From: Schmidtea nova
Taxonomy: Eukaryota
Length of the DNA stretch: 64,000 nt
Direction: 5' to 3'
Assembly (NCBI GenBank): GCA_044892505.1
Contig: CM097882.1
Location: 241,056,001-241,120,000 of the forward strand
The translations under genes were made by a program, and so were the position numbers. The notes beneath the pieces are model-generated. The model worked only from the letters and a program-made list of their open reading frames with translations. It made no database searches and had not been told where the DNA came from. Shown here piece after piece: positions 56,601 through 59,600 of the stretch (the first letter of the stretch is position 1; each line of letters opens with the position of its first letter).

Positions 56601-59600
56601 ATCATTTTTCCGAATATCAGGAATCTTCCCCACATTGCCTTCATCATATTCTCTGTGGCTTTCTTGAAATGTGCCGGTGACAACAACAGTTCGTAATTCG
56701 GTCCTTCTCGATAATTCGTTCCTCCCGTTATCGTTACGATATTTGACAGTAATGCTTCTCTTCTTGCCGGGAATAATATATTCTGCCTTGCTGCTTCTAA
56801 ATCCTTTGGACTATAGATTCCGTTGTTTGAGACATCTACGTCGCTGAACTGTCTATCCTTTGACAACTGCATTAGCTCAAATTCTCTTGGTGCTAATACT
56901 TCGGTTCTTCCTGGGAACATTACCCATTTGCCATCTGGCTTCTGATAAAGTGGTCCGTACGCATTACTACAGTTGAACGGATTTGGTTCAAACCCTGGTG
57001 GATTGATGATTCTCGTCACCGGTTGAACATATCGTACTTTTCCTTTATAATCGATTTCTAGTTCGTTTGTACATTGTCCAGGTTTCAACTGCGTTGTTGC
57101 TGCTAGCGATGCGTGTGTCTTTTCGCAAATGTATACATACATTGCCTCTCCAACCACTCTTCCGAAATGTCCTTCTCTCAGTGGTAATAATGGCATCGCG
57201 CTATCTGGATTCGTAATCGCTACGGCCAACTTTGTCTTCAATATTTCTCGATTCAGTATACAATCATTGTTTATCAGATCATAGTACACTTTTTGCAATG
57301 AGGCTTGTCCTCTATGGAATAAGAAATCCATTTTATTATTCACATACAAGTGTAGCTTGATATCCATTGTGTCGATCTTGGGTTTCGCATTCGGCACTTC
57401 TTGTTTCGACACATATATTCCTGGATAGTTTGTTTCGTATACTGTTGTACTGCACTTAAGGGTTGCTTTCCCTTTTATGAATCTCATTCCCACATCCTGA
57501 TTTGTGGTTATCAACACTGTTGGTGTAGTTCTCATCTCTATCCGTTTCTCTTTATGATCTGGTCTCAATTGTCTTTTATTCTCTAAAGCCTCTTTGAGAT
57601 GTTTTGCTCTAGCCTTGTCATCATCGTCCTCTTCTTGAAACGTTTTTCCTTGTATTTCGTCGAACTTTGCTCCTTGTAGCAGTTGTAATTGACATTCGTT
57701 CACTTTTGGTTTGTACACCAAAGTTGACATTCCCGTTTGACACATGCTTCTGTCAATCTTACACATGGATAACGTTTTCATTTCTCCTGTGGTCGGTTCG
57801 AAGAATGCTTCGTAACTTTTCAATTCGACTATGTACGTATCCATCACCACTAAGTTGGTTGCAGGTGCTCCGAATATCGGGTAGGTTTCTCCTTGACAAT
57901 ATCCTTCTCCTCCCGTAATTCGTCCTGCTACATAATACGTCTGCTGTAACATCATTCCTGGTTTTCCTTTTATCTTGATTTTATCTCTTGTTGTTACTTC
58001 TCCGTGTTTGAACAATGCTTCGCAGTCTTCTCCTTGCAACACGATTGGTTCTCTTTCTGTTCCTGGCATGACAATTGCTGAATAATGTCCTCTCCCACAA
58101 TAGAATGCGAATCTCGTCTTCTGTACCTTGCATTCATTCACTATTGTCTTTATTAGTTCTGCCTCTTGATACACGTGATACCATTGTTCCTTTTTGATCT
58201 CTCTTAACTCTACTGGAGTTGCATCTTTGCATTGCTCCGTACCTCTCAATGAGTACTTTTCTCCTAACTTCATTTGATCACAATCAAATACTTCAAATGT
58301 TGTTACACCCTCTGTGCTTAACAACCATACTAACATCATCATGATTATCGAGTTCAAATTCAACGTCGATCTTCCGTTTCCTTGCATCGTTTGTCTATTC
58401 TCCATTTCCCTCAATACTCCTTCAAGTTTCTTTCTCATCACGTTAGACCCTTCTTTTGTCTGGTTCTCTTTTATGAACTTTTCCCATCCTCCTTTCCTGA
58501 GGATATATGGTTCAATTTCTTTCTCGATAATCATCGCCGTATTTTTAATATGTCTTCCCATCGGACTTGACTTCGGACTTCCTCGGCTTAGCGTTAGCAA
58601 GTTGTATATCGTATACGAGATTGCTACTAGATATTTGCTGTCCGTTTCTGCTCCGTTAAGTAGCTTTTTTATTAACATCGTGGTTCCCTGCCAATCTAGA
58701 TGATTCGATTTTGTTTTCGCTTTTATCAATTCTGGCATAATCGGTGCTATTGCATTGTGTAGCATCCTTGCCTTTGTACTGGGTTCGTTTATTCGCCACA
58801 AATTCTTTAATTCCGGGTCAATTATTGCTAACACATCCATTATCGTTTTGGTGAGCCATTCTTCTCCTTGGCAGACTTGATTCTCTTCTTTTCCTCTGAT
58901 TTCTGCGATTTTATCTAATTTCTTCAAGCAAATCTCCCATTGCTCTTGTCTCCTTTCTTCCCTTGTCTTTGGGATTGTTGTTGCTGGATCTATCTTTGGT
59001 CTTCCTCTTGGTCGTTTTTCCATTCCAGTTCCGGTTTCTACAAATCTCGTTGCTCTTCCTGTTTCTTCCGTAACATCTCTTCCTTCGTTTGCTCGTTGTT
59101 CTAACCATCTTTCCATTTCCTGAGTAAACTGTGGTTGTTCTTGCTCGTCTTCTGAATCGTTTACCATTTCTATGACTACCTCCTGTTCCACTCCTTGATC
59201 GTCGATTTCTGCTGGTGACGTTATTGGCATCTCTATTATTCTGTCAAAAATATTCGCCGTTGGTTTTTGAGTCAACTTTGTTAATTCTTCTATCGCTTCA
59301 TCACTGTCTGTTAGTATCTCATCGACGTCATACGCTTCTGGCGGTGTTCTCTCTCTCGTTTTTATTGGTGTTGTCCTTGCTTGTCCCGAACTTGTTCCTG
59401 TGGTCATTGTTGACTTCATCGGACTTGGTGTACTCATGCTTCCTTTCGCTTTCTTTTCCTCTTTAAACTTCAGTGGTTGACCCACTATCTGTGCCACTGT
59501 TAGCGTATTCATTAGATCCAATTGCACTGGTGTCAGCCAGATTTCTAAACTATTATCCAACGATCGTCCTTGATGTTGCAGGTGGAATGGTAGTTCATAC

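Follow-up and report, generated by a model that had tools for sequence, protein, structure and literature searches.

Previous studies have shown that the Burro elements of planarians contain BCL2-like motifs, preceded by a SUMO-like sequence and followed by an in-frame Env, and it was suggested that they meddle with host apoptosis (PMC6431247). The motif was proposed in 2018-2019, PMC6431247 citing Grohme et al. 2018 in this respect. The size of the elements was given as just over 30 kb (PMC6431247) and, in a passage of PMC11410931, as exceeding 30 kb. Burro1 protects stem cells by way of its BIR-RING (IAP) region, according to Lee et al. 2026 as reported in PMC13465017. According to the relevant passage of PMC8532177, BURRO1 is held down by PIWI proteins and, on knock-down, rises mainly in differentiated cells, which tempers the stem-cell idea. 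We found no functional test of the Burro Bcl-2-like domain in the literature surveyed, though Grohme et al. 2018, Lee et al. 2026, and the supplements may treat it. Bcl-2 proteins are also encoded, as stand-alone genes with shown binding, by large DNA viruses (KsBcl-2, BHRF1, A179L, M11L, F1, SPPV14, CNP058); poxviral ones without clear sequence identity (M11L, F1) still block apoptosis, as stated in the sections of PMC5691656 that deal with them.

We analyzed a stretch of 64,000 nucleotides of the Schmidtea nova genome (the window), in which a preliminary description had placed a Bcl-2-like domain inside a retroelement polyprotein. The segment sits on the - strand within a 2,749-codon frame (53651-61900; product P0001) and belongs to a Ty3/gypsy element of the Burro type, 29,399 bp long. 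Its parts are, in order, Gag, ubiquitin-like, Bcl-2-like, in-frame Env, protease (PR), reverse transcriptase (RT), RNase H (RH), integrase (IN), and ankyrin, with TRAF downstream (Table 1). The LTRs (3,309 bp each, TG...CA) show 3 differences between the 5' and 3' copies, and there is a 4-bp target-site duplication (CCCA), which indicates a recent insertion. In the adjoining assembly stretch (L067, at about 3130-3153), a few bases off the end of the 5' LTR, is a sequence that may resemble a tRNA-Pro primer-binding site. Pfam gave no dUTPase match between PR and RT.

Table 1. Features of the window element (positions in the window unless another stretch is named)
Feature	Position	Strand	Basis or remark
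3' LTR	41064..44372	-	3,309 bp, TG...CA
TRAF-like accessory gene (RING, zf-TRAF, MATH)	46423..47853	-	Pfam; two pieces in window copy
Integrase, ankyrin repeats, long C-terminal region	48399..53807	-	Frame break near 53650 in window copy
Protease, reverse transcriptase, RNase H	53972..55960	-	Pfam RVP, RVT_1, RT_RNaseH
In-frame Env, Monjiviricetes-type fusion glycoprotein, C-terminal transmembrane helix	56540..58300	-	PF24664 E 4.5e-71; hydropathy
Hydrophobic helix before Env, aa 1179-1198	58307..58366	-	Hydropathy
Predicted Bcl-2-like helical bundle, aa 1013-1145 of P0001, alpha1 to alpha8 equivalents	58466..58864	-	Profile alignment aa 1013-1150; model helices; fold matches
Helix-6/BH2 stretch	58466-58555	-	Sequence; with the BH1-like stretch, residues 1079-1145
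BH2 motif PYILRKGGW	58484..58510	-	Sequence
BH1-like stretch	58613-58666	-	Sequence
TDSK, aligned with NWGR of BH1; Lys1089 in place of Arg	58634..58645	-	Alignments
Extra N-terminal helix, LxxIA motif	58889..58945	-	LxxIA common to five other families in the genome
AT-hook-like motif KRPRGRPK (presumed)	58994..59017	-	Sequence
Ubiquitin-like domain, aa 738-803	59492..59689	-	27 bits, top tile
Possible second ubiquitin-like domain, aa 459-530	60311..60526	-	Weak, tile E 0.005
Gag with three CCHC knuckles	61864..63636	-	Frame change near 61890 splits Gag from the rest in window copy
5' LTR	L067:3154-6462		Adjoining assembly stretch, past window end; partner of 3' LTR

By their published description, Burro1-4 (GYPSM1) share with this element a single frame of ~5,000 aa, a Gag with three CCHC knuckles, a length of about 30 kb, and the succession of SUMO/ubiquitin-like, BCL2-like, in-frame Env (with mononegavirus-like glycoprotein matches), PR-RT-RH-IN, and ankyrin parts, as well as TRAF/MATH and RING. 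They differ from it in that the Bcl-2-like domain of the window family lies below Pfam detection, and in that the TRAF of the window element is encoded by an accessory gene downstream rather than within or upstream of the polyprotein. Unlike Burro1, the window element has no BIR that we could detect, the BIR-RING protein of another family in the genome (family C) matching it solely via its RING, and there is a RING-only ORF upstream of gag. The latter (L067:2143-2616, - strand) lies between the 5' LTR and gag and is of the IAP type (zf-C3HC4_3, E 4.5e-9). The presence of a BCL2-like domain in Burro elements is thus already published (PMC6431247), and the window domain is a new, divergent member; in the papers surveyed, it figures merely as a motif. 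Of the preliminary interpretation, the domain, its degenerate BH1, and its cellular origin stood, the regulation of apoptosis or autophagy and the protection of stem cells being conjectural. What the present analysis contributes is support for the fold as a whole, evidence that the domain is under selection, a set of divergent natural homologues, a probable single origin, and an anchoring mechanism that lends itself to testing.

Other parts of the window were also inspected. The ubiquitin-like region was negative in a pairwise test and positive in a later test with a profile made of four hand-picked stretches from outside the family, three of them with weak matches to ubiquitin or SUMO-like entries of Pfam. 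Ahead of the 3' LTR (44575-46363, - strand) are two accessory ORFs. One, of 396 codons, encodes a coiled-coil protein, and the other, of 176 codons, a product with two hydrophobic stretches; there was no convincing Pfam family for either. Two ORFs inside the LTR (41454-42074 and 42205-42900, - strand; 206 and 231 codons) were given no family by Pfam either. Unrelated transposon remains (a Tc1-type transposase and several RT or integrase fragments) are found at 3274-3912, 8617-9918, 19248-20192, 25287-26633, and 38069-38965.

Searching the genome for relatives yielded at least 139 rows of the window family (family A) and at least 11 of a second family, A2, the best 150 of 1,048 candidates being scored. 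Of the 139, at least 26 (counted by eye) combine an open frame of at least 5,075 codons with a match free of stops, and unbroken copies contain a single frame of about 5,090 codons. A2, which is 66-67% identical to family A, gave at least 150 rows in a search of its own. Three sister families (B, B2, and B3), with RTs 52-55% identical to that of the window element, carry Gag, Env, PR, RT, and IN, and match Bcl-2 at the corresponding position, immediately ahead of the Env helix. The RGRP motif upstream of the domain, part of a sequence that we presume to be AT-hook-like, is also present in A2, in B, and in two proteins retrieved from public data (P0005 and P0006).

The window segment alone gave no Pfam match at E ≤ 1 (A2 was likewise without a PF00452 match), nothing relevant among PDB sequences (two unrelated rows, E > 1), no Atlas match, and no homologues in word-indexed searches. 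This lack of direct matches would fit a remnant in decay, or a helical linker whose GGW resembles the motif by chance. Its relatives behaved differently. A search of the genome with PF00452 recovered host Bcl-2 genes along with many long frames whose scores lay near the cut-off, and at the place equivalent to the window segment the matches were B (E 4.7e-7), B2 (1.3e-6), and B3 (6.3e-5). All three fall slightly short of the curated PF00452 cut-off, which one public element protein attains. A profile of the domains of B, B2, B3, and B4 (a short relative of B3, described below), found independently of the window segment, placed this segment at the top of 448 window tiles (E 0.0023), aligning to it over ~120 columns almost without gaps. 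The score of 12.9 bits was reached by 0 of 2,000 shuffles (maximum 9.6), GGW being left in place in half of them. Applied to the whole 2,749-aa frame without cutting, the same profile did not pick out the segment. Profile-profile comparison of the sister domains with the segment gave an E of 6e-5 and a probability of 65%.

When 1.84 billion representatives were searched with five domains, 10 proteins were retrieved, none of them named. Five have an Env start or the Gag-ubiquitin order, four are short or end early and group with the elements in the tree described below, and the tenth, P0013, looks cellular. With a profile of 13 element domains from which A and A2 were left out, the segment scored 54 bits (shuffle maximum 16.7), a value inflated because 9 of the 13 domains had been retrieved with family A in the query. 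A 15-row element profile found Bcl-xL with an E of 2.7e-8 over alpha4-alpha8, and adding family A to three sister sequences improved the E of the best Bcl-xL match from 1.5e-5 to 9.4e-7. The segment is hence homologous to PF00452 by way of intermediate sequences, its own direct score lying below the cut-off. On this evidence the window segment is a strongly diverged Bcl-2-family domain, below Pfam detection, and we have little doubt as to its Bcl-2 homology and fold.

Both motifs quoted in the preliminary description are present on the - strand. The BH2 motif (PYILRKGGW) is that of the Bcl-2 family, except that Tyr replaces the first Trp. GGW is found in 49 of 50 copies of family A, and in the 15 element domains each of the three residues is fully or almost fully conserved (at least 90%), in agreement with the conservation that a genuine motif had been expected to show. 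BH1 is indeed degenerate: it reads TDSK in place of the NWGR of classical pro-survival proteins, the basic residue alone being retained (K1089, in 50 of 50 family A copies). The Arg position is K or R in 15/15 element rows, while Gly is kept in 1/15 and Trp in 0/15; the corresponding figures for 12 host-type rows are 9/12, 2/12, and 10/12. Sequence matches to solved Bcl-2 proteins begin at alpha4; helices alpha1-alpha3 are predicted, with no established BH3 or BH4 motif. The domain resembles cellular Bcl-xL and Bcl-2 (PF00452) in its alpha4-alpha8 profile, its BH2, its basic BH1 residue, and the hydrophobic helix that follows it, and differs from them in having TDSK for NWGR, Tyr for the first BH2 Trp, and in that no BH3 or BH4 sequence was recognized. 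The extra N-terminal helix with the LxxIA motif was considered as a BH3 and left unassigned: it is without the Asp, lies 75-95 residues ahead of BH1, and is modeled with low confidence (pLDDT under 50), outside most fold matches.

From these features and those described below, we think that the domain may work as a membrane-anchored pro-survival accessory protein, like viral Bcl-2 proteins, and we estimate the probability of this reading, the likeliest, at about 0.5. It is favored by the retention of the domain across element lineages as distant as A and the B-type families, and by the basic residue at the BH1 Arg position in all element rows. A salt bridge between this Arg and an Asp of BH3 is a hallmark of BH3 binding, as indicated in PMC5691656. 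Other death or signaling modules on related elements (TRAF on the window element, BIR-RING in family C) point in the same direction. The loss of the BH1 Trp from 15/15 and of the Gly from 14/15 element rows argues against it, and mouse Boo, with SWSQ at this position, binds no pro-apoptotic protein (PMC5691656, in the part concerned with it). The same losses would suit a Bcl-2 fold serving as a scaffold that damps innate-immune or stress signaling without BH3 binding, maybe alongside the TRAF-like and ankyrin proteins of the element. Vaccinia A49, A52, B14, and K7 use the Bcl-2 fold in this way against NF-kB and IRF3, according to PMC5691656 as far as it covers them; A52 is among our fold matches (Z 6.1), and TRAF, ankyrin, and RING modules occur on the same element. 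We nevertheless regard a scaffold as unlikely, though worth serious consideration: BH2 and the basic BH1 residue are retained in all lineages and the profiles match Bcl-xL by sequence, while the poxviral scaffolds were recognized from structures only (same source, same part). The domain is also retained in the B-type families, considered apart from any TRAF or ankyrin partners there.

The fold was predicted with AlphaFold. A single-sequence run (pLDDT 43) was not used for fold searches; with an alignment of the 15 element rows, which contained no cellular or viral Bcl-2 sequences, the pLDDT was 65 and the pTM 0.57, and the model shows a first helix of low confidence followed by eight further ones. 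The domain is thus predicted, in the model only, to be an eight-helix bundle around a central hydrophobic alpha5. All 44 PDB matches listed by Foldseek belong to the Bcl-2 family, the best with an E of 0.012 and none under 0.001. With VIA-align, the Bcl-2 family occupied ranks 1-17 of 48,161 chains (Z 6.4-8.1, rmsd 3.1-3.9 Å, 101-118 residues, spanning model residues about 30-165), the first unrelated row having a Z of 6.3. In a viral library, viral Bcl-2 proteins came on top, and the Bcl-2 family heads all three libraries. The best Z, 8.1, falls in the range that helical bundles reach through their common arrangement, and identity to cellular Bcl-xL and the Bcl-2 family in the structural alignments is 10-16%. 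Because each fold score is modest, the weight rests on the agreement of family, coverage, and sequence evidence. The check by AlphaFold and Foldseek proposed earlier thus came out for Bcl-2, with modest scores. The viral proteins listed above, which are among the best fold matches, are like the window domain in placing this fold, with a divergent BH1, on a genetic parasite; the window domain differs from them in being part of a retroelement polyprotein, whose anchor would be the Env signal helix, and in that binding is shown for them and putative for it.

BAK came second in VIA-align and the model contains an alpha5-alpha6 hairpin, which would be compatible with an effector of the Bax/Bak/BOK type that permeabilizes membranes for particle exit or for killing neighboring or competing cells. 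Rows within 1 Z unit are tied, however, and the sequence profiles favor Bcl-xL over Bax and Bak. Effectors need a BH3 motif to oligomerize, and no such motif was established in the domain. We therefore hold an effector to be very improbable.

Families A and A2 were compared over the domain, where they show 73% identity and a pN of 0.15 as compared with a pS of 0.75 (synonymous sites saturated). Identity elsewhere is 63% in the linker before the domain, 44% in the linker after it, 61% in Gag, and 94% in RT. Among 20 family A copies spread down the match list, the shared variants in the domain are 5 non-synonymous and 42 synonymous, and the singletons 22 and 25 (p 0.0002). These two comparisons were preferred to that of the 30 top-ranked copies, in which ranking by protein score biases the variant counts toward few amino-acid changes. 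Within family A, constraint on the 44 codons just upstream of the domain equals that on the domain, which means that the variant counts indicate a translated, constrained frame rather than a domain-specific signal. In the sister families, the domain (dN/dS 0.30-0.48) is less constrained than Gag (0.14-0.22). As judged from these substitution patterns, the domain is under purifying selection. The preservation of 73% of the residues despite saturated synonymous sites and the few shared non-synonymous variants in the 20 copies speak, together with the shuffle controls and the positional homology, against a decayed remnant or a chance linker; this explanation is largely refuted, and we give it next to no weight.

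A tree of 79 columns was computed with 15 element and 12 host-type rows, leaving out seven near-copies or interrupted sequences (L046-L049, L062, L064, L065). Its branches are long, and the element domains form a single one (99/100), which is consistent with one capture. The element domains likely stem from the cellular Bcl-2 family via one old capture, as far as a sequence tree can tell, which supports the earlier proposal as regards capture from a cellular family. The host-type group nearest to the element branch is weakly supported (66/83). The host genome carries BOK-like and other Bcl-2 genes; the BH3 exon of two Bax-like genes was not found within 10 kb. It also contains an expanded set of short, divergent Bcl-2-like genes (L042, L044, L048, L056, L062, L065), also without NWG, which are the weakly supported neighbors of the element branch. 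One B2 copy (L047) has NWDR at BH1, nearer the canonical motif than the other element rows seen. The Env of A and A2 (window 56540-58300 compared with L034/L076) is 97% identical, with a pS of 0.25 as against 0.57-0.88 in other regions; because of this difference, env was likely exchanged recently between the two families.

According to hydropathy, P0001 contains two hydrophobic helices, one (aa 1179-1198) immediately preceding Env and the other at the end of Env. The first lies 38 residues past BH2 in P0001, and 27-56 residues past it in 11/11 element proteins long enough to test; in the cellular-type P0013 a tail anchor is found 21 residues past BH2. The helix before Env is likely the Env signal peptide, and we infer that it may also be a tail anchor of the Bcl-2-like part. 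The polyprotein of ~5,090 codons would be threaded into the ER by this helix acting as an internal signal, with the Gag, ubiquitin-like, and Bcl-2-like parts remaining cytosolic and Env entering the ER lumen. Signal peptidase would then free Env in the lumen and leave the helix on the upstream protein as a C-terminal anchor, in the usual topology of Bcl-2 proteins. The cytosolic domain could in this state bind the BH3 helices of host death proteins via a non-canonical groove, and so delay the death of the cell expressing the element. When a complex of the domain with the BH3 helix from a host BOK-like gene was predicted, the score was 0.01 (alignment not used), a value that speaks neither for nor against binding. 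Bak and Bax act at mitochondria, and an ER anchor would place the domain away from these, which counts against a pro-survival role.

There is a family, B4 (L078-L083, e.g. L080:2915-5881, + strand), that is a short non-autonomous derivative of B3. It retains Gag, the Bcl-2-like domain, and the hydrophobic helix, and has lost the Env ectodomain, PR, RT, and RH, the loss running from just past the helix through the end of Pol. It comprises about 48 rows, 14 of which, counted by eye, are open over 981-1,001 codons, and some are in tandem with a 5.9-kb spacing. Its Bcl-2-like domain is more worn (GHW, no Pfam match). That the loss starts right after the helix while domain and helix are kept fits the idea that these two form a unit. 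The content of B4 would also fit a role in particle assembly, in which domain and helix tether the Gag precursor to the ER membrane beside Env, in the manner of a matrix, death signaling being incidental. This would agree with two features common to all elements seen: the domain shares its reading frame with Gag and Env, and it directly adjoins the first membrane helix on what is presumably the cytosolic side. HCV core, which stays anchored by the signal peptide of E1 (PMC5402940, in the part consulted here), is held likewise. The helix alone would suffice for such a tether, however, and the retained BH1 and BH2 surface residues would need a further reason; moreover, the non-autonomous family C spreads with no Bcl-2-like domain or Gag detected in the 2 copies examined. 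We accordingly find a mere tether improbable.

Returning to the pro-survival reading, a specific version of it can be proposed, which as a whole is rather doubtful. A single ancient host Bcl-2 would have been captured, the Env signal helix would double as its tail anchor, and the resulting ER-bound, viral-type Bcl-2 would disarm host effectors, e.g. BOK-like ones. It is conceivable, with similar reserve, that the groove keeps solely the basic residue of NWGR and that each polyprotein yields one ER-bound Bcl-2. In the same genome, the putative arsenal is divided among families: autonomous elements bear Bcl-2-like domains, a short element parasitic on them bears Gag, the Bcl-2-like domain, and the anchor, and an IAP is carried by a second non-autonomous family. 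If the capture and anchoring took place as proposed, the element would encode a working Bcl-2 mimic, a second anti-death arm beside the reported IAP. Should the domain prove pro-survival, retrotransposons and DNA viruses would have arrived at Bcl-2 mimicry by convergence, and hundreds of genomic copies could shape host cell turnover and regeneration.

The B-IAP of Burro1 (BIR-RING), in the account of it cited above, is similar in that a death-regulator domain is borne by a giant planarian retrotransposon, and different in that it is a caspase inhibitor and not a Bcl-2 family member. The BIR-RING gene of the window genome is on the separate, non-autonomous family C, in 2 copies of which no Gag, RT, Env, or Bcl-2-like domain was detected. 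This family (L110-L119) is a 24-25-kb element with 4-kb LTRs that are 99.9% identical, and it encodes ubiquitin-like, protease, ankyrin, TRAF, and BIR-RING parts. A search of the genome for BIR gave at least 150 rows, mostly 399-codon frames.
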